Part shown: piece by piece, positions 19,006 through 30,354 of the stretch | How positions within the stretch are numbered: the first letter of the stretch is position 1 | Layout: the number at the start of each line of letters is the position of its first letter | Origin: Opitutales bacterium | GTDB lineage: Bacteria > Verrucomicrobiota > Verrucomicrobiia > Opitutales > JABSRG01 | Assembly (NCBI GenBank): GCA_049599475.1 | Contig: JBMYOQ010000043.1 | Location: 1 to 35,765 of the forward strand | DNA: 35,765 nt | Direction: 5' to 3' | Notes under the pieces: generated by a model | What the model saw: only the letters and a program-made list of their open reading frames with translations | Told to the model about the DNA's origin: nothing | Database searches by the model: none | Position numbers and translations under genes: made by a program

Positions 19006-19608
19006 ATGTCTAAACCTCTCTTCCGCGCATATGCTGATGATTTGTCTACTGTTGTTGGTAAGATAGATTGGACAGTTCTGGAGCCCATTGCGCATGCCCT
19101 GGTTTTGGCATGGAAGAATGACAGCTCCATTTTTATTTGTGGAAATGGTGGGAGTGGCGGTAACGCCAATCACCTTGCGACAGATTTTGTATGGGGAGTG
19201 GCTCCTAATTCAGGTAAAGGTATGCGTGCGCAGGCGCTAACAGCTAATTCGAGTGTACTGACCTGCTTAGCAAATGATATTTCGTACGAAGAATCTTTCG
19301 CCGAACAGGTAAGAATTTTGGGCAGACCCAGGGATGTCCTTATTGTCATGTCCGGTAGTGGAAACTCGCCTAACATACTGCGGGCGATTCAGGCCGCTCA
19401 GGAAAAACAGATCACGACTATTGGTTTTTTGGGTTTTGATGGAGGCAAGGCCTTAGAAATGGTCGACCTCAAGTTACATTTTCCGATAAATGATATGCAG
19501 ATTTCTGAAGACTTGCAGCAGGTCGCGGGTCATATGCTAACGCGTTGGTTGAATGAGAATTATGAGGCGGCGCTCAGTGAAGTCAGCTTAGATTCTATCA
19601 ATGCGTAA
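19006..19608 (+). CDS. gmhA: SIS-domain phosphoheptose (sedoheptulose-7-phosphate) isomerase
   Basis: CGNGGSGGNANH, TCLAND, SGSGNSPN, GFDGG, MQISED. AGGAG ribosome-binding site at 18994-18998. Confidence 0.85.
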   Translation: MSKPLFRAYADDLSTVVGKIDWTVLEPIAHALVLAWKNDSSIFICGNGGSGGNANHLATDFVWGVAPNSGKGMRAQALTANSSVLTCLANDISYEESFAEQVRILGRPRDVLIVMSGSGNSPNILRAIQAAQEKQITTIGFLGFDGGKALEMVDLKLHFPINDMQISEDLQQVAGHMLTRWLNENYEAALSEVSLDSINA

Positions 19609-20593
19609 GTTAGCGGTCATCGGCAGTAATGCGTTTTCTGCTGCCTATTTCATTAAGGTAGCCCTCGAGGAGGGTTGGGATGTCGTGGGAATCTCGAGGT
19701 CGTCTGAGGTAGCGGAACCGTATCGTCCCTATGCTTGGGATTCACCTTCACATAAAGGGACTTTTCGTTTTGTTCAGGCCCATTTGGCAGACGACACTGA
19801 TAAAATCCTGAATGTCATTGAAGAGGAAGAAATTGCTTACGTGGTGAACTTTGCTTCGCTGGGGATGGTAGCTGAAAGCTGGCAGTATCCAAAGGATTAC
19901 TACGTGACGAATGTTGTTGGTAACGTAGCCCTCCACGAAGGACTGAGACGGTTTGATTTCCTGAAAAAATATGTTCATGTCTCTACTCCGGAGGTCTATG
20001 GTAATACGTCGGGTGACGTTAAAGAGGATTGTGTCTTCAACCCGAGTACTCCGTATGCCGCTTCACGTGCAGCGTGTGACCTTCATTTGCAGACTTTTGC
20101 GGCTCAATATGATTTTCCGGTAGTCTTTACGCGGGCGGCCAATGTGTTTGGTCCGGGGCAGCAGCCCTACCGTATCATCCCGCGAGCCATTTTGTGTGAT
20201 CGTTTACCAGAGACTCTACATTTGCACGGCGGTGGAGTATCTGTGCGCTCATTTATTCATATCCGCGATGTGTCCGTGGGTACTCTGATGCTTTTAGATA
20301 AAGGAGTAAACGGTGAGGCCTATCATCTTTCTACGGATCGTTACGTATCTATCCGTGAACTCGTTGAGTTGATATATGCGCGTATGGGTTCTGATTTCGC
20401 GTCGCGTGTCGAAGTATCACCAGAGCGCCCCGGAAAAGATCCAGCTTACTATCTGGATAGTCAAAAACTACATGATCTTGGTTGGCAGCCTCAAGTTTCG
20501 CTGGAGGATGGTATTGATGAGACTATTCGCTGGATCGATCAATATTTAGCACCGATTCGAGATTTACCTCTCGGTTATACGCATATTCGTTAA
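19601..20593 (+). CDS. NAD-dependent nucleotide-sugar epimerase/dehydratase (4,6-dehydratase-like SDR)
   Basis: IGSNAFSA, HVSTPEVYG, PSTPYAASRAA (YxxxR), R.ANVFGPGQ, RSFIHI.D. Overlaps the gmhA stop. Confidence 0.88.
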   Translation: MRKLAVIGSNAFSAAYFIKVALEEGWDVVGISRSSEVAEPYRPYAWDSPSHKGTFRFVQAHLADDTDKILNVIEEEEIAYVVNFASLGMVAESWQYPKDYYVTNVVGNVALHEGLRRFDFLKKYVHVSTPEVYGNTSGDVKEDCVFNPSTPYAASRAACDLHLQTFAAQYDFPVVFTRAANVFGPGQQPYRIIPRAILCDRLPETLHLHGGGVSVRSFIHIRDVSVGTLMLLDKGVNGEAYHLSTDRYVSIRELVELIYARMGSDFASRVEVSPERPGKDPAYYLDSQKLHDLGWQPQVSLEDGIDETIRWIDQYLAPIRDLPLGYTHIR

Positions 20594-20602
20594 CGTTTTG
20601 TA

Positions 20603-22150
20603 ATGCCCTCGACCACACAGGAAAAAATACTTGCATACGCAGAAGCGTCAGAAGTTTTTTGTAGATTGCGCACTGAGGGAAAGACTCTGGTGCAGTGTCA
20701 CGGAACGTTTGATCTGGTACACCCTGGCCACCTGATTCACTTCGAGGAGGCGAAGGCTCTTGGTGATATTTTGGTGGTTACGCTGACTGGCGAGCAATTT
20801 GTAAACAAGGGGCCTGGGCGCCCTTACTTTAATGATGCTCTCAGAGCGAAGTCACTTGCTTCATTACACATGGTGGATTATGTAGTGGTAATTCCATTTT
20901 CTGCGGCTGTTGAAGCAATCGAATGCGTGAAGCCTGATGTTTACTGCAAAGGTAAGGAATACGAAGATACCCGTAATGATGTAACCGGGAATATTCATGA
21001 CGACCTGTCCACTGTGGAGAAATACGGAGGCAGCATGGCGTATGTGGGAAGCGTCGTGTTTAGTTCAACTAAACTTCTTAACAGAGGCTTTGATACGCAT
21101 TCAGAGGAAGTAAAAGCTTTCTGCAAAGCTTTTGGCGAACGTTTCGACAGTGGATGGTTGCGTGATGAAATAGACCGCTGGAGTGACCTTAAGGTTTTGG
21201 TCGTTGGCGATGCTATCTTCGATAAATATACAACCGTTAATGTTCAGGGTCTCACATCAAAGAACAGAATCATTTCAGGGCGATATGTCGCTGATGATGT
21301 TCAGGCAGGAGGTGCTTTGGCAGTCTACCGTCACGTTCGTGCGTTTACGAATAATGTTAAAATTCTCAGCCTTGTCGGTGATGACCCTGTTACGGACTTG
21401 ATGCTTGGGGAAACTGTTGACCCAGAACATGATTGGCTTATAAGAGATCCTCGCTTTACGACGATTATTAAACAACGTTTTGTGGAGCCCGCCTCCGAGC
21501 GTAAGGAGATTTCCAAGCTCTTCTCGATCAATTATATTGATGATGAAGCTCCAGTGAAGGAGATTCAGCATGAACTCGAGAACCGATTGAAAGCAGTGTT
21601 ATCGGACTTCGACCTTGTGCTTGTGATGGATTTTGGTCACGGGATGATGCAATCTACTGTGCGTGAGATCGTCCAAGATGAAGCTCCATTTCTTTTCGTT
21701 AATTGCCAGACGAATAGCTACAACCGTGGCTACAATATTATTAATCAGCAATATACGAAAATGAATGCCTTTTCTCTTGATCTTCCAGAGCTTGAGTTGG
21801 CAATCAGTCAGAAGACGCCGGACCCTCAGTTGAGCCTGCAAGAACTTAAAGTGTCTTTCAATTCAGATTACGCGTTCCTTACTCGCGGACCTAGTTCAAC
21901 ATTGGGTCTATATAATGGAAAAATGAGCGCATTGTGCCCTGCCTTAGAGTCGGACGTAGTCGACACCATTGGCGCAGGTGATGCGTTCTGTTCGGTGGCG
22001 GCTTTCGCTTGTGCTCGAGGGTTGCCCGTTGATGTAGCAACTTTTTTGGGGCAACTCGCAGGTGCTCAAGCGGTGAAGTATGCTGGCAACACTCAATCAA
22101 TTCGAAAGGATAAGCTGCTGAAAGCGATCAGTGCGCTGACAAGCTACTAG
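20603..22150 (+). CDS. Bifunctional nucleotidyltransferase / PfkB kinase (HldE/RfaE-like, transferase domain first)
   Basis: N-terminal HGTFDLVHPGH, NKGPGRP and SSTKL. C-terminal VGDAIFD, GGA, DFGHG and DTIGAGDAF. Confidence 0.88.
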   Translation: MPSTTQEKILAYAEASEVFCRLRTEGKTLVQCHGTFDLVHPGHLIHFEEAKALGDILVVTLTGEQFVNKGPGRPYFNDALRAKSLASLHMVDYVVVIPFSAAVEAIECVKPDVYCKGKEYEDTRNDVTGNIHDDLSTVEKYGGSMAYVGSVVFSSTKLLNRGFDTHSEEVKAFCKAFGERFDSGWLRDEIDRWSDLKVLVVGDAIFDKYTTVNVQGLTSKNRIISGRYVADDVQAGGALAVYRHVRAFTNNVKILSLVGDDPVTDLMLGETVDPEHDWLIRDPRFTTIIKQRFVEPASERKEISKLFSINYIDDEAPVKEIQHELENRLKAVLSDFDLVLVMDFGHGMMQSTVREIVQDEAPFLFVNCQTNSYNRGYNIINQQYTKMNAFSLDLPELELAISQKTPDPQLSLQELKVSFNSDYAFLTRGPSSTLGLYNGKMSALCPALESDVVDTIGAGDAFCSVAAFACARGLPVDVATFLGQLAGAQAVKYAGNTQSIRKDKLLKAISALTSY

Positions 22151-22163
22151 CTGAGCTAGTGGA

Positions 22164-22258
22164 AGAATTCAGAATTTAGAGATTAGAATTTAGACGATGA
22201 ACAAAAAATATAAGACATCGAGATTTCCAGCCCCCTAAATTCTACGTTCTAAAATCTA
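22164..22258. repeat. Heptamer inverted-repeat element A (intergenic)
   Basis: Left arm agaattc-agaattt-agagatt-agaattt-aga (22164-22194). Right arm ctaaatt-ctacgtt-ctaaaat-cta (22235-22258). Confidence 0.9.
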
Positions 22259-22274
22259 TTTATATCTATAAATC

Positions 22275-23237
22275 ATGAAAATTCTACTAACAGGTGCCTG
22301 TGGGTTTGTCGGAACCCAGTTAACAAAGAGTCTTTTAGATGCTGGCCATGAAGTGATCGGGGTCGATATTATGTGGTTCGGTAATTTTTTGGCGTCGCAC
22401 GAGAATCTTACGGTTATTGAGGCAGATATTCGCGATACCGATAAAGTCCCTATGGAGGGCGTAGATGTTGTATTGCATCTCGCAAACGTAGCCAATGACC
22501 CCTGTGCTGATCTTGATTCGAAGTTGAATTGGGAAGTCAATGCATTGGCCACTAAGTTCCTGGTCGAGAAAGCAATCGACCATGGTGTGAAGCAGTTCGT
22601 TTATGCAAGTTCGGGGAGTGTCTATGGCGTCAAGAATGAGCCCGAGGTTACTGAAGAGCTGTCTCTTGTGCCGATATCCGACTACAATAAAACGAAGATG
22701 GTCAGTGAGCGGGTTCTCCTGAGCTACCAGGACCAGATTGTTGTGAATATCATTCGCCCTGCCACAGTGTGTGGATATTCGCCGCGGATGCGTTTGGATT
22801 TGTCGGTGAATATTCTGACGATGTTGGCTTTGCGTGATGGCAAAATTACGGTGTTTGGTGGCGATCAAACTCGGCCTAATATTAATATCAAGGACATGAT
22901 TCGTGTGTATCACCATTTCTTAGATAAAGGCATGGAATTACCGGGGATTTATAATGCAGGCTTTGAGAATATTTCGATTATGGATATCGCAGAGCGTGTT
23001 ACCGAGAAGGTTGACGCTGAAATCATTGTGACTCCGTCCAATGATCCACGTTCTTATCGCTTATCATCCAAGAAGCTTTTAGATACGGGCTTTACGCCAA
23101 AGTATACCGTGGATGACGCGATGAACGAAGTAATCGAAGCGTGGTCAAGTGGTGTGCTGCAAGATGAGGAGCATTTTTATAATATAAAGACCATGAAACG
23201 ACTGTCTTCAGAACAAGCTGAACCGGTCCTTTCTTAG
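22275..23237 (+). CDS. NAD-dependent nucleotide-sugar epimerase/reductase (extended SDR)
   Basis: TGACGFVG, HLA.VANDP, ASSGSVYG, YNKTK, RPATVCG.SPR.RLDL. Confidence 0.9.
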   Translation: MKILLTGACGFVGTQLTKSLLDAGHEVIGVDIMWFGNFLASHENLTVIEADIRDTDKVPMEGVDVVLHLANVANDPCADLDSKLNWEVNALATKFLVEKAIDHGVKQFVYASSGSVYGVKNEPEVTEELSLVPISDYNKTKMVSERVLLSYQDQIVVNIIRPATVCGYSPRMRLDLSVNILTMLALRDGKITVFGGDQTRPNINIKDMIRVYHHFLDKGMELPGIYNAGFENISIMDIAERVTEKVDAEIIVTPSNDPRSYRLSSKKLLDTGFTPKYTVDDAMNEVIEAWSSGVLQDEEHFYNIKTMKRLSSEQAEPVLS

Positions 23238-23247
23238 GACAGCCTAA

Positions 23248-24087
23248 GTGTCACGTAAAACATCAATCATGTCCGCTGTTAAAGTGCCTATTCAGAATCA
23301 ATTGAGGATGGACGTGGTACGGCTGTCCCATCAGGCGAGGACGCCACATTTGGGGTCCTCATTGTCGTGTGTGGACATGATAGCTGCTCTCTATTTTGAA
23401 GGGTTTTTGAAGCATCGCCCATCCCAACCCGATTGGGAGGAACGCGATCTGTTTTTCTTGAGTAAAGGTCACGCAGTAACGACTTTGTATGCTGCCCTAG
23501 CGCGCTCCGGTTATTTTAATGTGGAGCATTTATTCGAGCGCTATTTTGAGGAGGGTGGACCTTATCCTGAGCACCCGGCACCCAACGCCTTGCCAGGTAT
23601 AGAGTTCGCAACAGGTAGCTTGGGCCATGGCTTATCGGTAGCAACGGGCGCCGCTTTGGCTAATAAAATGTCCGGTAGAGGCAGTCGTGTGTTTGCGTTG
23701 CTCAGTGATGGCGAGTGCAATGAGGGCTCGACCTGGGAAGCTGCTATGTGGGCGGGAGCTCAGGGAAGTCTGCGGATTTGCGCAATGGTAGATTTTAATA
23801 AATGGCAAGCTACAGGGCGCAGTGCTGAGGTCATGGCGCTTGAGCCATTTGAAGATAAATTTCGAGCTTGTGGTTGGCGAGTGGCTCGTATCGATGGAAA
23901 TAATCCGGAGGCAGTAGGCAGAGCTTTATCTGTATTTGAAAACGACGATTCCAGCCCCTTGGCAATCATCGCTGACACTGTGAAAGGCAAAGGCATTTCC
24001 TTTATGGAAGATGATAACAACTGGCACTACCGAATACCGACGGAAGAGGAGGTAGGCAAAGCCAAGCAGGAGCTTGGGCTTTGTTAG
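23248..24087 (+). CDS. Transketolase-like TPP enzyme, N-terminal subunit
   Basis: HLGSSLS, SKGH, HP, TGSLGHGL, SDGECNEG.TWE, TVKGKG.SFME...WHY. Alternative start ATG 23269. Confidence 0.92.
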   Translation: MSRKTSIMSAVKVPIQNQLRMDVVRLSHQARTPHLGSSLSCVDMIAALYFEGFLKHRPSQPDWEERDLFFLSKGHAVTTLYAALARSGYFNVEHLFERYFEEGGPYPEHPAPNALPGIEFATGSLGHGLSVATGAALANKMSGRGSRVFALLSDGECNEGSTWEAAMWAGAQGSLRICAMVDFNKWQATGRSAEVMALEPFEDKFRACGWRVARIDGNNPEAVGRALSVFENDDSSPLAIIADTVKGKGISFMEDDNNWHYRIPTEEEVGKAKQELGLC

Positions 24088-24240
24088 ATTTTAGAGTTTA
24101 GAACTTAGAATTTAGAAAATTATATTTGATAAGCTGCCGTCCACCATTTCCTAAATTCTATCCTCTGATTTCTCATATCCTTTATCAACTCAAGATCACC
24201 AGATCCCTTTTCCTAAATTCTAGGATCTAAACTCTCAAAA
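24086..24240. repeat. Heptamer inverted-repeat element B (one left arm, two right arms)
   Basis: Left arm agatttt-agagttt-agaactt-agaattt-aga (24086-24116). Right arms ctaaatt-ctatcct-ctgattt-ctcatat (24151-24178) and ctaaatt-ctaggat-ctaaact-ctcaaaa (24213-24240). Confidence 0.9.
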
Positions 24241-24242
24241 CC

Positions 24243-25181
24243 ATGCGCAACGCATTTGCAGATGAAATATTAAAGCTCGCTGAAAAGGATGAAAGAATTG
24301 TCCTGCTGTCGGGTGATATTGGGAATCGTCTCTTTGATCCATTTAAAGCTGCGTGTCCTGATCGCTTTTTCAACTGTGGAGTCGCTGAGCAAAATATGGT
24401 GGGTATGGCTGCGGGTTTAGCGCTTAGGGGATATCGCCCGGTTGTCTACACAATCACGTCTTTTCTATTAAATCGACCCTATGAACAAATCCGAATCGAT
24501 GTCGGATACCATCATTTGCCAGTCACCTTTGTCGGTGTGGGTGGAGGCCTAAGTTATGCTTCCAATGGGGGGACGCATCATGCGACTGAAGACATCGCCC
24601 TCATGCGCACGATACCTGGTATGCAAATTGTGGCGCCCGGGGATGCTCCCGAAGTACGGGCAGCAGTCAATTTGATAGGAAAGGTGGATCAGCCTTTATT
24701 CATCAGAATCGGTAAAAAGAAAGAGCCGGTTGTTCATGAGTCACCGGTAGAATATGCACTGGGTGGTTCGATCTGTTTCAAAGAAAGTGGAACCGTAGGA
24801 ATTTGTGTCACTGGGAATCTATTACCGTTTGCGTTGGAAGCGAATGAGATTCTCCAAGGTCAGGGCGTAGATGCTCGGCTCTATCATGCATACTCGCTGG
24901 AGCCTATAGATCAGGGTATCGTGGATACTTTATTCGACGAATGCACCACGGTATTTTCGGTCGAAGAACATTCGGTCCAAGGTGGACTGGGAAGTATTTT
25001 ATTAGAAACTGCTCACCAGCGAGGACACGACACGCGTAAACTTAAAAAAATAGGCACACCTCATAGCTTTCATCACCGAACGGCCACCCAACAGCAGCAC
25101 CGAGAACAGTTAGGCCTCACTGCCGAAGGCATAGCCAAGCAAATACGAGAAAATCTTCCCACCCTGAACTCTAAACCCTAG
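24243..25181 (+). CDS. Transketolase-like TPP enzyme, C-terminal subunit
   Basis: MRNAF, RFFNCGVAEQNM.G.AAGLA, RPYEQIR.D, G.THH..ED, VEEH...GGLGS. Confidence 0.92.
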   Translation: MRNAFADEILKLAEKDERIVLLSGDIGNRLFDPFKAACPDRFFNCGVAEQNMVGMAAGLALRGYRPVVYTITSFLLNRPYEQIRIDVGYHHLPVTFVGVGGGLSYASNGGTHHATEDIALMRTIPGMQIVAPGDAPEVRAAVNLIGKVDQPLFIRIGKKKEPVVHESPVEYALGGSICFKESGTVGICVTGNLLPFALEANEILQGQGVDARLYHAYSLEPIDQGIVDTLFDECTTVFSVEEHSVQGGLGSILLETAHQRGHDTRKLKKIGTPHSFHHRTATQQQHREQLGLTAEGIAKQIRENLPTLNSKP

Positions 25182-25287
25182 TTCCTAAACTCCAAAACCT
25201 AAATTCTAACACCCAAACCCTCCAACCTCCGTGCCCATCCAATCCCCAACAACGAGCAACCAAAAACCAATTCCCAGTTCCCAACAA
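25164..25287. repeat. Heptamer tract C (right-arm type only) plus a second CCA-type heptamer tract
   Basis: ctgaact-ctaaacc-ctagttc-ctaaact-ccaaaac-ctaaatt-ctaacac-ccaaacc (25164-25219), then ccaatcc-ccaacaa-cgagcaa-ccaaaaa-ccaattc-ccagttc-ccaacaa (25239-25287). Confidence 0.85.
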
Positions 25288-25959
25288 CCCACCTCTGGCA
25301 CCGAACTCGATTTCATCGGTCTGGTTCATAAATCGACCAAGCGCGATTATGTGGCACGTGTCACGGAGTATCCGAAAGAGCTAGCTGCCGAAAAAGCATC
25401 TCAGTGGGGGCTCGATTACTGGGATGGTGATCGGAAAACAGGGTATGGAGGCATGCGTTACGATGGCCGTTGGGAGAAGGTTGCACGCGCTATGGCGGAG
25501 CACTACGGCATAAAGTCAGGTGATCGGATCCTCGACATTGGCTGCGGTAAAGGCTTTTTGATGTATGACTTCACTCAGGTCGTTCCGGGGGTCGAGGTCG
25601 TAGGGCTCGATATCTCGGAATACGCTAAGGAACATTCCAAGGAAGAAATTTCGGATAAGATTCATGTGGGGGACGCAGCGGATTTACCTTTCGAAACGGA
25701 TAGCTTCGACTTTGTTGTATCGATAAATGCTTTACATAATCTCGATGCCCACAATCTGGATAAGGCGCTCCGTGAAATGCAGCGTGTGGGAAAGGGCCCC
25801 GCCTTCCTTTGCGTTGAAAGCTTCCGCAATGAATCTGAAAAAGTAAACCTCCTCTACTGGCAACTCACTTGCCGCGCCTTTCATTCCCCAGACGCCTGGC
25901 GCTGGCATTTCGAAACCGCGGGATATACCGGAGATTATGGATTCATCTATTTTGAGTGA
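25231..25959 (+). CDS. Class I SAM-dependent methyltransferase
   Basis: YWDGDRKTGYGG, ILDIGCGKG, GLDIS, LPF..DSFD.V. GTG start with a repeat-derived N-terminal extension. Confidence 0.88.
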   Translation: MPIQSPTTSNQKPIPSSQQPTSGTELDFIGLVHKSTKRDYVARVTEYPKELAAEKASQWGLDYWDGDRKTGYGGMRYDGRWEKVARAMAEHYGIKSGDRILDIGCGKGFLMYDFTQVVPGVEVVGLDISEYAKEHSKEEISDKIHVGDAADLPFETDSFDFVVSINALHNLDAHNLDKALREMQRVGKGPAFLCVESFRNESEKVNLLYWQLTCRAFHSPDAWRWHFETAGYTGDYGFIYFE

Positions 25960-25982
25960 TTGCATCACTCAAAATAGATGAA
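25942..25982. repeat. Perfect 19-bp palindrome across the methyltransferase stop codon
   Basis: ttcatctattttgagtgat-tgc-atcactcaaaatagatgaa. Confidence 0.95.
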
Positions 25983-26424
25983 AGGGTTTAGAGATTAAGT
26001 TTTAGAATTTAGGGATGGAGTCGGGGTTTCGTAAGTTAAAGGTTTGGCAGAGAGGTAAGGCACTTGCCGTGTCGATTTATCGAATCACAGCGTCTCGGCA
26101 ATTTGAGCAGGATTGGGGGTTGAGGGACCAGATGCGACGGTGCGCGGTAAGTATCCCTAGTAATATCGCAGAAGGTGAAGGGCGCAGCTCTGAAATAGAT
26201 TCTGCTCGTTTTTTATCTATTGCGCGTGGATCGGCTGCCGAACTGATTACGCAGCTAGAAATAGCCGAAGAAATTGAATACCTTAAAAATAATATTGTGT
26301 TTGAAGCCATCGACGAGTGTGAGCAGATATCCTCAATGTTGTCCGCACTCATATTAAAGAAACGCGCAAAGCCTAAGAGATAGAGCCTGAACCCTAATCT
26401 CTAAATTCTGAACCCTAAACTCTA
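25983..26424. repeat. Heptamer inverted-repeat element D enclosing the four-helix-bundle gene
   Basis: Left arm agggttt-agagatt-aagtttt-agaattt-aggg (25983-26014) abuts the ATG. Right arm ctgaacc-ctaatct-ctaaatt-ctgaacc-ctaaact-cta (26387-26424) begins 3 nt after the stop. Confidence 0.9.
26015..26383 (+). CDS. Four-helix-bundle protein (23S rRNA intervening-sequence protein / Avd-like family)
   Basis: FRKLKVWQ....L...IY.IT......WGL.DQMRR.AVSIPSNIAEG..R.......FL.IARGS.AEL.TQL.IA. Confidence 0.93.
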   Translation: MESGFRKLKVWQRGKALAVSIYRITASRQFEQDWGLRDQMRRCAVSIPSNIAEGEGRSSEIDSARFLSIARGSAAELITQLEIAEEIEYLKNNIVFEAIDECEQISSMLSALILKKRAKPKR

Positions 26425-26430
26425 TTAAAA

Positions 26431-27465
26431 ATGCGAAGCATTTCCGCCCTCCTCATCGAACAAAAAAAGCCTCTCGAATTGGCAGAGGTCGAAATTCCTC
26501 AGCTTTCCTACGGGCAGGTGTTGGTGGAGGTAAAGCAATCGCGTATCTGTGGTTCACAACTTGGGGAAATCGATGGGGCCAAAGGGCCTGATCGCTGGTT
26601 GCCGCATTTGTTGGGCCATGAAGGAGTCGGAATTGTGCGCGAAATCGGTCCGGAGGTGAGCACTGTGCGAGTAGATGATCGCGTGTGCATGCATTGGCGT
26701 CCGGGCGCGGGTATCAATGCTCGTCCACCCCAATATGATTGGAACGGGAAAACGGTAAATGCTGGTTATGTCACCACATTCAACCAGTATGCCGTAGTTT
26801 CGGAGAATCGCCTGACTACGGTTCAATCCAATGTGTCTGATGACCTGGCATGTTTAATGGCGGATACGCTAACAACTGGTTTCGGGGTCGTGTCCAATGA
26901 CGCGCAGGTGAAAATCGGTGAGTCTCTGTGTTTAATTGGGTGCGGTGGTATCGGGATGGGGGTAATACAAGGTGCCGCATTGGCCGGGGCCTATCCCGTT
27001 ATCGCTGTTGATCTAGTCGACGATAAACTTGCGTTCGCTAAACGTATCGGTGCGACGCACACATTTCGTGGCGATGATCCCGATTTAGATTCTAAGATTC
27101 GAACGATCGTCGGGCAGGCAGGTGTTGATGTTATGGTGGATGGTACGGGAGTGCCCGCTGTCATTGAAAACTGTTACAAGCTAACTCAACCTAGAGGCCG
27201 AACAGTTTTATTCGGAGTCATGGCGTATGATCGTTCAGTAAACCTGCACACTCTACCGTTGCACCATGGTCAAGTCCTTACCGGGAGCGAAGGCGGGCAG
27301 AGTCGTCCCGACATTGACATCCCACGAATAGCCGCACTTCACGAAGCTGGTAAATTTTCGACTGTTGAATGGTTCACGAAAAAAGGAAGATTGAGCGAAA
27401 TAAACGATCTCATCGCAGCGCTCCGCTCAGGCCAAGAAAGGCATGTGGGGGTGAGATTCTTATGA
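26431..27465 (+). CDS. Zinc-binding medium-chain dehydrogenase/reductase
   Basis: ICGS, LGHEG.G, IGCGGIG. Lacks the four-Cys structural zinc lobe. Confidence 0.88.
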   Translation: MRSISALLIEQKKPLELAEVEIPQLSYGQVLVEVKQSRICGSQLGEIDGAKGPDRWLPHLLGHEGVGIVREIGPEVSTVRVDDRVCMHWRPGAGINARPPQYDWNGKTVNAGYVTTFNQYAVVSENRLTTVQSNVSDDLACLMADTLTTGFGVVSNDAQVKIGESLCLIGCGGIGMGVIQGAALAGAYPVIAVDLVDDKLAFAKRIGATHTFRGDDPDLDSKIRTIVGQAGVDVMVDGTGVPAVIENCYKLTQPRGRTVLFGVMAYDRSVNLHTLPLHHGQVLTGSEGGQSRPDIDIPRIAALHEAGKFSTVEWFTKKGRLSEINDLIAALRSGQERHVGVRFL

Positions 27466-27472
27466 ATCTCAC

Positions 27473-27575
27473 AGAATTTAGATAATAGGTTTTAGAATTT
27501 AGACGATACAGTTCAGGCTCTGGAGCCGTTTCACCTAAGCCCTAAACTCTAAAATCTAATCCCTAACTTCTAACA
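27473..27575. repeat. Heptamer inverted-repeat element E (intergenic)
   Basis: Left arm agaattt-agataat-aggtttt-agaattt-aga (27473-27503). Right arm ctaagcc-ctaaact-ctaaaat-ctaatcc-ctaactt-ctaaca (27535-27575) runs directly into the ATG at 27576. Confidence 0.9.
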
Positions 27576-29066
27576 ATGCTCCTCGGTCTCGATATGGATA
27601 ACACAGTCTGCGACTACGGTGCTGCGTGGGCGTGGGCAGCTTCAGAGATATTGGATGGGGCTTGGGATATTACGAGTGATCCGAGGCGTGAACTGAAGAA
27701 GCATTTCCAAGAAAAACCAGGGGGGAATCTGGAGTGGACTGAGTTGCAAGGGATTATCTACGGTCAGGGTATCGAGCACGCCCGAATCCCGGATGGACTC
27801 CTCAGTGCTATGGATCAATGGAGAGCTCAAGGGGGGCGAATTGTTTTGGTGAGCCATAAGACTCGTTATCCAGCATATGGAGAATGCCTTGATCTACATG
27901 CTGCTGCCGAGAAGTGGCTCTATGCCACGGGTCTTATCGGGAAGCTTGATGAAACCTTTTTTGAAGCCACGGTCCAGGCAAAGATCGATCGCATCGCAGC
28001 CCTCCGTCCTCAAGTATTTGTCGATGACCTCGAAATGATCGGCTCCCATCCCGATTTTCCCAAAACGACCCAATTTCTCCATTACTCCAGTCCGGAGGAC
28101 TGGACTCAATTAGAAGCTGTGCAGAAATTAGAGTTTAGAGATCAGGGTTTAGATAAAGAAGAAATGCCCCCTCTGTCCTCGGTTCCAAATTCTAAATTCT
28201 CTAGCCTGAAATCTAAGACTCTTTCCGGCGGCCTCAACAATGCGGTAACATCGGAAGGTGATACGGTCCTTAAAACTTACCCACAATCACCCGCGGATGC
28301 GCGGCGCCGATATGGCCGTGAAGTGGCCTTTCTCGAAACGATGCAAGGCGTCGGGCGCATCCCCAAGGTAATTGAGAAGCACCCAGAAGAGCCCGCACTC
28401 GTTATGGAAAAAATCCCGGGCCGTCTTGTGGACACTTCAAATTTGACGACCACTGATTGGGACCAAGCAGTAGACTGGCTCAAGAAACTCTTCATCAAGA
28501 GTGGATCCCTAGATCGCTCGCAAGGCCCCAAGGCCAACGAGGCTTGTTTCTCCCTTATGGACTATCTAGGCGTCCTTCATCTGAGGCGAGACAGGCTCGC
28601 GCAGAATTTAGAGGCTTCGCAGAGTTTAGAAATTAGGGAACTGAAGGTAGAAAGGAATGATGGGGACCCCTCTCAACTCTCCAATCTAAACTCTAAATTC
28701 TTAAATCTATACTCTGAGCTCGCGAAGCGAGCGTTATCTCACCCTGAGTTCAAAACGAAAGCCCCCGCGTCTCAACATGTCTACAGTCCCTCAGATATAG
28801 GCTTCCACAATACGCTGCGTCTCGAAGATGGCACTCTGGCATTTATCGATTTCGAATTCGCTGGTTGGGATGATGGCGCAGGTTTGCTGGCTGACTTCAT
28901 CTCTCAACCACGTGTTTCGGAGGAAGATAATCCATATGCCTCAAATCCCTTGATGTTGTTGGATGAATTTCGTCTTTGGATCTCCGATTCAGATGAGACG
29001 TTTTTACTGAAATGTGAACTGCGAGAGCTGTGGTGGAGTTTCGTAAAGGCGCTCAGAGTTAATTGA
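27576..29066 (+). CDS. Fusion of a HAD-like phosphatase and an APH-fold phosphotransferase
   Basis: N-terminal LGLDMDNT, VSHKT and FVDDL. C-terminal GGLNN, VLKTYP, SPSDIGFHN and FIDFEFAGWDD. Confidence 0.8.
   Translation: MLLGLDMDNTVCDYGAAWAWAASEILDGAWDITSDPRRELKKHFQEKPGGNLEWTELQGIIYGQGIEHARIPDGLLSAMDQWRAQGGRIVLVSHKTRYPAYGECLDLHAAAEKWLYATGLIGKLDETFFEATVQAKIDRIAALRPQVFVDDLEMIGSHPDFPKTTQFLHYSSPEDWTQLEAVQKLEFRDQGLDKEEMPPLSSVPNSKFSSLKSKTLSGGLNNAVTSEGDTVLKTYPQSPADARRRYGREVAFLETMQGVGRIPKVIEKHPEEPALVMEKIPGRLVDTSNLTTTDWDQAVDWLKKLFIKSGSLDRSQGPKANEACFSLMDYLGVLHLRRDRLAQNLEASQSLEIRELKVERNDGDPSQLSNLNSKFLNLYSELAKRALSHPEFKTKAPASQHVYSPSDIGFHNTLRLEDGTLAFIDFEFAGWDDGAGLLADFISQPRVSEEDNPYASNPLMLLDEFRLWISDSDETFLLKCELRELWWSFVKALRVN
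28123..28219. repeat. Heptamer inverted-repeat element F (in frame within CDS)
   Basis: Left arm agaaatt-agagttt-agagatc-agggttt-aga (28123-28153). Right arm ccaaatt-ctaaatt-ctctagc-ctgaaat-ctaagac (28185-28219). Confidence 0.85.
28603..28728. repeat. Heptamer inverted-repeat element G (in frame within CDS)
   Basis: Left arm agaattt-aga...gcttcgc-agagttt-agaaatt-aggg (28603-28638). Right arm ctcaact-ctccaat-ctaaact-ctaaatt-cttaaat-ctatact-ctgagct (28672-28720), with gcgaagc (28722-28728) complementary to gcttcgc. Confidence 0.85.
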
Positions 29067-30354
29067 TTACACGTGAAGCGATTTTGAAGAAACTCTCGTG
29101 TAATTGATCGACGGTGGATGGGTTCCAAAGATATATTTGATTTTCATTATTCCAACAATTCGCTTTGCCGACTTCCATGTATTTGCGCTCATGCACTGTC
29201 CGATAGTTGTAAAGGACACAAGGGTTTTGATTCATATACGCCATTGTTGACGGTCCAGAAGGGCCTCCAACAAATATCGTTGCTAAATATATTAAGGTGT
29301 AGTCCAAGTTAACGTTGTGTCCTTTATACTCCCGGGTGAACAAACAATTTTCAGCTATATCCGCTGGGAAATCGGCTCGTTCACCATCGATAATAAGCCA
29401 TTTGATTTTCGGATATCTATTTAAGGACTCCCTGATAAGGCTTTGATAGTCTTCAGAGCGAGCGTTTCGTTTGATTGTATACTTATTGTTTCTTATGTGT
29501 GTAGCGAAAAAATAATTACGAATATTGTGTTCTGAAAGATATGTTTTTGCTGCATTAATATGATTATTCTCAGGAATAAGGCGTGGGAGTATTTTGGTTT
29601 CTTGATGAAAGCCTTGGATGAATCTGTAGTAATCTGTATAATTCCGATAAGCGACTCCGCTGTCGGATTTAAATTTGGGAATCACCCATTCGCCCTCAGG
29701 TTTTTCTGCCAAATATCTCTCGAGTTCAAGGGCATCTTCAATATAGATATATTGGTCTTTTCTGCGTGTTAGCGAAGAAAAGTGAATTAATTGGTCGTTG
29801 TTTGGAAGGCCCTCTTTAAGCTCGTTATCGAACCGATAAGGTCGACGAGAATCTCTGAACCAGATAGTTTTGATGGGAATGTTTCCGTAGTAATCGGAAA
29901 TCATATTTAGGATAACCACGAAATTTAGATAATCGCCGAAAGTTTGAGGGACGATGCGGAAGTCCCATACACCTGTGATCCATTTTGGACTGGCTTTATT
30001 GGGGTAAAGCTCGGATCGGCGTTTCAACATTATTTGGTCTACAAACTGGATCTCTGGAAATTTTGAAAATTGAAATGGGTTGAATTCAGAAATTTGATAC
30101 GATAGCTCTTCGTCGGTAGTGTTTTCTATATTGTTTTTCAGGCCTTGGATAAGTGCCAAAAGCTCGAACGTTTTTTCGGGATTCACATAAGGGAGACTCT
30201 TTGCCTCTGTTTTGTCATAAAGTGAAGCATGAGCACTCAATTTTGTCGTGAAGGCTGTGATATGCTTGCGCAGAGCTTCGCTATTCTGAATGGCGACAAG
30301 GTTAAGCGCCTTGAAATAAAATCGATATAGCCTTTTGACAGATTTTTCTTCCAT
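29059..30354 (-). CDS. AT-rich hypothetical protein, putative glycosyltransferase-like (GT-B-type C-terminal region)
   Basis: 431-aa ORF with TFGD, THIRNN....RNA and LIYLATIFVGGPSGPS..A.....P....N, resembling putative glycosyltransferases of glycan loci. Confidence 0.55.
   Translation of the reverse strand: MEEKSVKRLYRFYFKALNLVAIQNSEALRKHITAFTTKLSAHASLYDKTEAKSLPYVNPEKTFELLALIQGLKNNIENTTDEELSYQISEFNPFQFSKFPEIQFVDQIMLKRRSELYPNKASPKWITGVWDFRIVPQTFGDYLNFVVILNMISDYYGNIPIKTIWFRDSRRPYRFDNELKEGLPNNDQLIHFSSLTRRKDQYIYIEDALELERYLAEKPEGEWVIPKFKSDSGVAYRNYTDYYRFIQGFHQETKILPRLIPENNHINAAKTYLSEHNIRNYFFATHIRNNKYTIKRNARSEDYQSLIRESLNRYPKIKWLIIDGERADFPADIAENCLFTREYKGHNVNLDYTLIYLATIFVGGPSGPSTMAYMNQNPCVLYNYRTVHERKYMEVGKANCWNNENQIYLWNPSTVDQLHESFFKIASRVIN

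Follow-up and report, generated by a model that had tools for sequence, protein, structure and literature searches.

The window analysed here is the whole of contig JBMYOQ010000043.1 (35,765 nt; GenBank assembly GCA_049599475.1) from the 4.68-Mb genome of an Opitutales bacterium. Positions 19006-29066 hold a same-strand sugar-modification operon encoding a SIS isomerase, an epimerase, an HldE-like protein, a second epimerase, a split transketolase, a methyltransferase, a four-helix-bundle protein, a zinc dehydrogenase and a HAD-phosphotransferase fusion. Within this operon lie six cassettes, as we call the inverted pairs of degenerate AGAATTT heptamer arrays, with a left and a right arm: A, B, D and E between genes, and two (i1 and i2) in frame inside the last gene (Table 1). 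Only cassette D encloses a gene, whose four-helix-bundle product matches PF05635 (E-value 6.5e-36) and TIGR02436; the other five units are gene-less. A search of plasmids turned up none but distant PF05635 relatives. The arm duplexes range from -18 to -35 kcal/mol, and an Rfam search gave zero matches for the locus. Each of the four intergenic left arms is directly preceded by a hairpin formed from the 3' end of the upstream gene, and these four hairpins are real and cluster beyond chance.

Table 1. Genes, hairpins and cassette arms of the operon between positions 20603 and 29066 of the window
Feature	Position	Strand	Remarks
HldE-like cytidylyltransferase/PfkB kinase gene	20603..22150	+	Hairpin A takes its 5' half from the last codons and TAG
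Hairpin A	22144..22162	+	8 bp, one G-U, 3-nt loop, -8.8 kcal/mol; 3' half non-coding
Left arm (AGAATTT type), gene-less cassette A	22164..22198	+	
Right (inverted) arm, cassette A	22232..22259	+	
Transketolase N-terminal subunit gene (tkN)	23248..24087	+	Stop codon comes from the start of the left arm
Hairpin B	24057..24083	+	11 bp, one bulge (24055-24085 with G-U); all within coding sequence (GKAKQELGLC)
Left arm, gene-less cassette B	24086..24120	+	
Two right arms, cassette B	24148..24237	+	24148-24175 and 24210-24237, 62 nt apart
Methyltransferase (MT) gene	25231..25959	+	True start probably after 25231; conserved end FIYFE* is the 5' half of hairpin D
Hairpin D	25942..25982	+	19 bp perfect, 3-nt loop, -24.2 kcal/mol; last 10 nt in arm register
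Left arm, full cassette D	25983..26014	+	Heptamers before the gene; original start may be 25973
Four-helix-bundle gene	26015..26383	+	122 aa; PF05635, TIGR02436; relative of solved XCC0516 (2gsc)
Right arm, cassette D	26384..26425	+	Ends 5 nt ahead of next ATG
Zinc-binding dehydrogenase (ADH) gene	26431..27465	+	Last codons (VRF) are the 5' half of hairpin E
Hairpin E	27451..27472	+	9 bp perfect, 4-nt loop, covers TGA
Gene-less cassette E	27473..27573	+	Left arm from 27473, right arm 27532-27573
HAD-like/phosphotransferase fusion gene	27576..29066	+	Holds two in-frame cassettes
Hairpin before intragenic cassette i1	28086..28104	+	8 bp perfect, coding; i1 arms 28123-28150 and 28182-28216
Hairpin before intragenic cassette i2	28586..28600	+	5 bp, chance-level length; i2 arms about 28603-28653 and 28669-28717

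A first-pass annotation of this DNA had placed such a hairpin before four of four intergenic left arms, with the heptamers beginning 0-2 nt past its end, and both claims held: the gap from the hairpin end to the first AG-led heptamer is 1 nt for A, 2 nt for B (0 with its G-U extension) and 0 nt for D and E. We scored the gene ends of the genome, delimited with our own gene caller, allowing for G-U pairs and bulges in the score. Among 3326 gene ends, the score of A was reached by 141, that of B by 31, that of E by 40 and that of D by 1, yielding a joint product for A, B and E without D of about 5e-6, uncorrected for the number of operons looked at; the remaining gene ends of the operon scored 0-5. 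Hairpin D, with 26% G+C, is the longest among 688 perfect stems of at least 8 bp in the genome, the longest perfect inverted repeat, and the sole stem of at least 11 bp covering coding sequence among 3333 gene ends. Taken singly, A, B and E are modest: in a stricter test of the last 24 coding nt against the next 27 nt, D alone reached significance, with p 0.002 compared with 0.15 for A, 0.18 for B and 0.19 for E. We rejected a hairpin-rich region, since perfect stems of at least 8 bp number only 5 in the window, close to the genome-wide 0.15 per kb. A further 6-bp hairpin, of chance-level length, covers the stop of the second epimerase (23233-23248) with no arm after it.

That these hairpins are ordinary terminators, chance pairings or an assembly artefact is very improbable. 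The modest individual strength of A, B and E would fit such an origin, as would the inner stem of B, which passes the terminator pattern, and the fact that D was spanned in one run only, possibly the source of the assembly. Against it stand the joint probability, the finding of the same layout in three other genomes, and the mid-operon position of A, D and E, which lack a U-tract. A and E were moreover confirmed in a second study, whose contigs span both with no differences; B, like D, was spanned only in the possible source run, and two further runs had no coverage of D. Read-set contigs over 20500-29500 contained no variants, joints or deletions; those from RNA were all short and lay within genes. 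A terminator scan returned 9 sites (9.3 expected), with A, D and E unlisted and the inner stem of B listed but lying within coding sequence, and the G+C-rich stem and U-tract after the stop that mark an intrinsic terminator were not found. The outcome that the first-pass annotation had named as fatal to its reading, ordinary terminators or the same hairpins without arms, did not occur.

Orthologous gene ends and junction geometry

We retrieved 84 loci with orthologous genes and compared 12 hldE, 30 tkN, 79 MT and 44 ADH ends, all from distant orthologues (the best 60-73% identical). The window score was reached by 0/12, 0/30, 0/79 and 1/44 of these, respectively, the other 164 of 165 scoring lower. 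The 5' half of hairpin D encodes a conserved IYFE*, and since this end is kept in 64 of the 79 MT orthologues, we take that half to be old coding sequence and the 3' half to be new; the latter is non-coding, A+T-rich, perfectly complementary and missing from all 79 orthologous MT ends. The first-pass annotation had suggested checking whether element-free orthologues lack the 3' half as well. The methyltransferase and dehydrogenase genes of a syntenic locus (L012) overlap, stop on start, and leave no sequence between them. A and E are built like D, with a coding 5' half and a new 3' half. An origin by copy-back of the target 3' end is well supported for D and plausible for A and E.

Both halves of hairpin B encode the conserved A-K-Q-E-L-G-L end (AKQELGL in L015), and its stop codon is left uncovered; a conserved Trp falls within the hairpin at 28086-28104, and the conserved RRxxRL within that at 28586-28600. 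The sequences fold better than synonymous recodings (p 0.008 for B, 0.005 for 28086-28104 and 0.04 for the region of 28586-28600). For B and 28086-28104, with both halves coding, copy-back is not needed. The proposal of the first-pass annotation that the target 3' end is copied back thus stands in part, for D and with less force for A and E, and does not extend to cassettes in general (2/170, see below). Its description of the intragenic hairpins as weaker fits 28586-28600, whose 5 bp are at chance level (stems of at least 6 bp occur at about 10% of positions), but not the perfect 8 bp of 28086-28104, which is not weaker than A and ends 7 nt ahead of the nearest heptamer-like word and 18 nt ahead of the array.

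The other proposal made from the sequence, that the cassette targets hairpins already present at gene ends, fared worse, and we give it hardly any credence. B and 28086-28104 could predate their cassettes because both of their halves are coding. However, the idea is already largely refuted: the element-free orthologues are without the hairpins, only some 1-4% of gene ends have such stems, and the ends at which most cassettes lie are hairpin-free.

Relative to the stop codon, arms start at a median of +1 in 76 cassettes, 45 of which start between -10 and +6. In A, in D and at two loci of other genomes (L257 and L342), the hairpin loop occupies this usual arm-start position and the arm is shifted by the length of the 3' half; in the window, the hairpins lie on the 5' (left) side of cassettes only. 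The last ten bases of hairpin D (AATAGAT GAA) are in arm register, with GAA replacing the usual TTT-like triplet, and on the opposite strand AATAGAG forms the outer unit of cassette D's right arm. As candidate seed microhomology, AATAGA is common to the 3' half of D and the arm register, GCA is shared at locus L174, and none is clear for A, E or L342. Inspection of the four junctions by eye showed no clear direct repeat of the target such as an IS or MITE insertion with target-site duplication would leave. A DNA search of 40 relatives retrieved only distant copies of the operon (65-72% identity in patches), with no match in a same-genus genome that is 86% complete.

Hairpins at other cassettes

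The hairpin-at-arm rule is local to this operon and marks no general footprint. Elsewhere in this genome we found 57 heptamer arms, 24 of which abut a same-strand stop, none of them (0/24) with a stem of at least 8 bp; the second four-helix-bundle cassette of the genome (C10:3209-3559), with GGGATTT arms, is also without hairpins. For other genomes, we collected a sample of 247 four-helix-bundle genes, 170 with an upstream gene end. We abandoned defining cassette ends by one long duplex, which ran over the entire flanks, and used stop-anchored tests instead. Stop-centred stems of at least 13 bp were present at 2/170 cassettes and 0/4180 control ends (p 0.0015, a threshold chosen after the data were seen), and at a threshold of 12 bp at 2/170 and 2/4180. 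The tail of stop-crossing complementarity (p<=0.05) held 13/158 cassette ends and 17/428 control ends (p 0.055). We also rejected a tie to the AGAATTT repeat type: 0/14 stop-abutting AGAATTT-like arms in other genomes scored at least 8, and 36 other-genome arms and 58 viral-contig arms contained no stop-covering hairpin scoring above 8.

Two loci of the same operon type (L026 and L028) carry GCAGAAT cassettes with hairpins absent, and a third (L011, G036:C56) has a full four-helix-bundle cassette after hldE, the junction of cassette A; all three are cases of the same operon type colonised independently by cassettes with other heptamers.

Similar hairpins do recur at unrelated genes. A cysD end of the same family (L342) pairs 20 of 21 bp over its TGA, a locus of the same order (L257) has a 12-bp stem over its TGA, and in a deltaproteobacterial metagenome-assembled genome (L174) 16-17 bp at the end of an efflux gene read through into the arm. 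The three hairpins end within 1 nt of the arm or overlap its first bases, and the long cassette stem begins directly. A genome-wide tendency in the L174 genome was rejected, as 3/21 stop-abutting arms had stems of at least 9 bp and only one of these came from coding sequence. At L295 (G186:C80), a perfect 13-bp palindrome lies right behind the stop and flush at the left arm, and does not come from coding sequence.

The cysD-cysN junction is occupied in 11 of the 62 ends examined. Scores of at least 8 were reached by 5/14 cysD ends with a cassette or arm and 1/48 without (p 0.0016, overstated because the genomes are related), and a strict pairing test gave 2/14 and 0/48 (p 0.048); two of the five hairpins are mostly intergenic. 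These counts are no more than suggestive of hairpins going with cassettes at cysD ends. The junction provides a ready comparative system in which to date hairpin versus cassette.

Selection could be the main cause, stepwise codon choice and point changes having built RNA structures with a protective or tuning effect on the upstream message after cleavage of the cassette stem, and we judge this unlikely. In its favour, B and 28086-28104 are coding on both sides and yet beat their synonymous recodings, the G-U pair of hairpin A favours the sense strand (-8.8 versus -6.0 kcal/mol), two cysD cases (L446 and L382) pair through several G-U pairs, and at cysD there are also hairpins that lie in part or entirely between genes (L374 and L607). 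A perfect, A+T-rich 19-bp copy such as D would, however, be hard to obtain by point changes, G-rich arms give G-U pairs by composition (L382, p 0.10 versus shuffles), and most cassettes have no such hairpin.

Proposed origin of the hairpins

The reading that we favour, tentatively, is that the 3' halves of the junction-flush hairpins arose by sporadic local fold-back (template-switch) copying of the last codons, and that they were probably kept here to shield the mRNA 3' end. One copying step is the simplest way to obtain a complement of constrained coding sequence that is both perfect and A+T-rich. Cassettes are placed at gene ends with the arm normally about +1 from the stop; in the proposed scheme, the sense-strand 3' end at this junction would fold on a few complementary bases, extend on its own strand and rejoin at the arm, which would be pushed 12-25 nt downstream. 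For D, the outer arm unit AATAGA, complementary to the gene's TCTATT, is the likely seed of the switch, which would have overwritten the next three arm bases. For B and 28086-28104, little or nothing would have been added and an existing near-palindrome improved. The left-only placement requires a free sense-strand 3' end at the junction, either during insertion or afterwards, for instance through a stall or break at the cassette or in later repair. We prefer a post-insertion event, given that D seems to have overwritten part of the arm and that B can be explained without an insertion. In bacteria, template switching is known to turn imperfect short inverted repeats into perfect ones (PMC5941160, in the sections available).

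As for retention, we predict that, if RNase III cuts the long cassette stem as it does in rRNA intervening sequences, of which that of Coxiella is described as excised by this enzyme (PMC4990558, available text), the small hairpin would then block 3'-5' exonucleases; the accessible part of PMC10667835 describes polynucleotide phosphorylase as stopped by 3' stem-loops. Such 3'-end protection would explain why four of four hairpins became fixed in this operon, and is the role for which we suppose they were retained.

Several observations weigh against fold-back copying followed by retention. Outside this operon, scoring palindromes at arms against control ends, the check put forward in the first-pass annotation, showed no enrichment at 9 bp: stop-centred stems of at least that length were found at 3/170 cassettes and 10/863 local controls (p 0.46), and complementarity across the stop showed no overall shift (158 versus 428 ends, p 0.60). 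Operons rich in arms can lack such hairpins, as none of 36 array-bearing ends in the orthologue loci scored at least 7. The 3' half of E is partly explicable as the former overlapping start of the next gene (ATG AAT CTC, compared with the present ATG CTC CTC). No consistent advantage of the sense strand was seen in the strength of the long stems, so that we rejected the idea that they fold only there. No close element-free or hairpin-free ancestor, empty site or polymorphic population was found in the 40 relatives and the read-set contigs, so the order of events is unobserved. Mutation alone, finally, does not explain why four of four arms carry a hairpin here and about 1-2% elsewhere, and neither timing of the copy, during insertion or after it, accounts on its own for the fixation of all four.

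The copy could instead be made at insertion: where the stop codon of the target lies, a free 3' end, or else the end of the cDNA, would sometimes copy the upstream target backwards before joining, for example during reverse transcription of a cassette RNA helped by an Avd-like protein; we regard this as possible but rather unlikely. It would fit the restriction of the hairpins to the 5' side of cassettes here, the flush ending of every strong hairpin at the arm with its loop where arms normally start, and the position of D beside the operon's only intact cassette. Snap-backs form a minority class among R2 insertions and at times copy target DNA from close by (PMC11371274, available portion), PF05635 is said to resemble Avd, a protein of diversity-generating retroelements (PMC10053308, available portion), and the genome has 5 matches to the reverse-transcriptase family PF00078. 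However, no reverse transcriptase was found on the window's contig, about 98% of cassettes are unmarked, AGAATTT-like arms elsewhere included, B and 28086-28104 require no added bases, the 3' half of D appears to overwrite the arm, as fits an event after the arm was in place, and the mobility of the cassettes is itself putative. A wider form of this proposal, in our view equally doubtful, holds that cassettes spread through a free 3' end at the target stop, with inverted copies as a snap-back by-product, and that this operon records a burst of a snap-back-prone variant. As a separate observation, a 523-aa reverse-transcriptase-like gene lies elsewhere in the genome (C52:3088-4659) among restriction-modification-like genes, with heptamer arrays at 1574, 4703 and 6247.

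We compared the locus with four known systems. The first, the 23S rRNA intervening sequences of Coxiella burnetii and Leptospira that carry an open reading frame (S23p/PF05635), are similar in having complementary termini around a four-helix-bundle reading frame, with heptamer repeats just before its start codon (PMC4990558). The long stem of complementary termini is also found here, and cassette D alone has a PF05635 reading frame in the loop after heptamers. Unlike the rRNA units, those of the window lie between or inside mRNA genes of a protein-coding glycan operon, five of six are gene-less, and the upstream gene contributes a hairpin in front of every intergenic left arm, a feature of which the available text of PMC4990558 makes no mention.

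The second, short-range template switching or quasi-palindrome correction, as described in the accessible sections of PMC5941160, likewise gives perfect short inverted repeats in one step, with a small spacer and a few-base seed. It is presented there as a general replication error, whereas the products here cluster at stop codons, flush with a cassette arm. Its expected product, near-perfect arms around a short spacer with one coding-constrained arm, is seen in D and E (perfect) and in A (one G-U), and its expected absence or imperfection in orthologues is also seen, the orthologues being distant. The third, the snap-back 5' junctions left by the R2 retrotransposon protein, are reported in the part of PMC11371274 available as a minority of insertions in which the 5' junction, and no other, has an inverted copy that in some cases derives from target DNA close by. 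A minority of copies on the 5' side is what we observe, left only in the window and at 2/170 cassettes elsewhere. R2, however, brings a reverse transcriptase and a nuclease of its own, and its snap-backs are mostly copies of the cDNA, whereas the cassette encodes neither enzyme and is only putatively mobile. A linked reverse transcriptase, as expected for target-primed reverse transcription, was not found on the contig.

Repetitive extragenic palindromic (REP) elements are an example of the fourth, the 3'-protective stem-loops of polycistronic mRNAs. What sets the hairpins described here apart is that one strand consists of the last codons and stop of the gene itself, that each site has a different hairpin and that they are A+T-rich. 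The likeness is that a U-tract-free hairpin at the end of an internal cistron could stop 3'-5' exonucleases after processing (PMC10667835, accessible part).

The rRNA form of the cassette family is already known, and we found no description of hairpins beside such cassettes in the literature searched, a scope outside which subscription papers and supplements fell. The hairpins are a sporadic scar and a clue to cassette biology, not a demonstrated insertion footprint. The cassettes lack a transposase, and an inverted copy of the target flush with one end constrains the mechanism by which they could arise and spread. If the snap-back reading is true, the hairpins would be the first mechanistic trace of the movement of widespread, transposase-free cassettes, and would point to RNA-templated, Avd-assisted insertion. 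If they protect processed mRNA ends, the cassettes would serve as portable sites of processing and thereby alter gene dosage within glycan operons.

Further arrays and cassettes in the genome

Genome-wide, a larger second heptamer family (GGATGAA) comprises 43 arrays over many contigs. In the window, two stacked right-type arrays of different heptamer families lie at 25161-25289 and have no left arm; they extend over the stop of tkC and the stretch ahead of the methyltransferase gene, and look like the remains of older cassettes.

The two cassettes within the HAD-kinase gene (28123-28216 and 28603-28717) are translated in frame. One sits in a domain linker; the other supplies about 37 residues at a helical insert that has about 25 in orthologues. 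In the outer stem of cassette i2, GCTTCGC (28615-28621) pairs with GCGAAGC (28722-28728), a sequence that forms an unusually stable DNA mini-hairpin, and similar short G+C motifs break up the arms in Shewanella loci. A partial second copy of the kinase domain is found at the contig end (35447-35683), 72-76% identical to 28750-28952.

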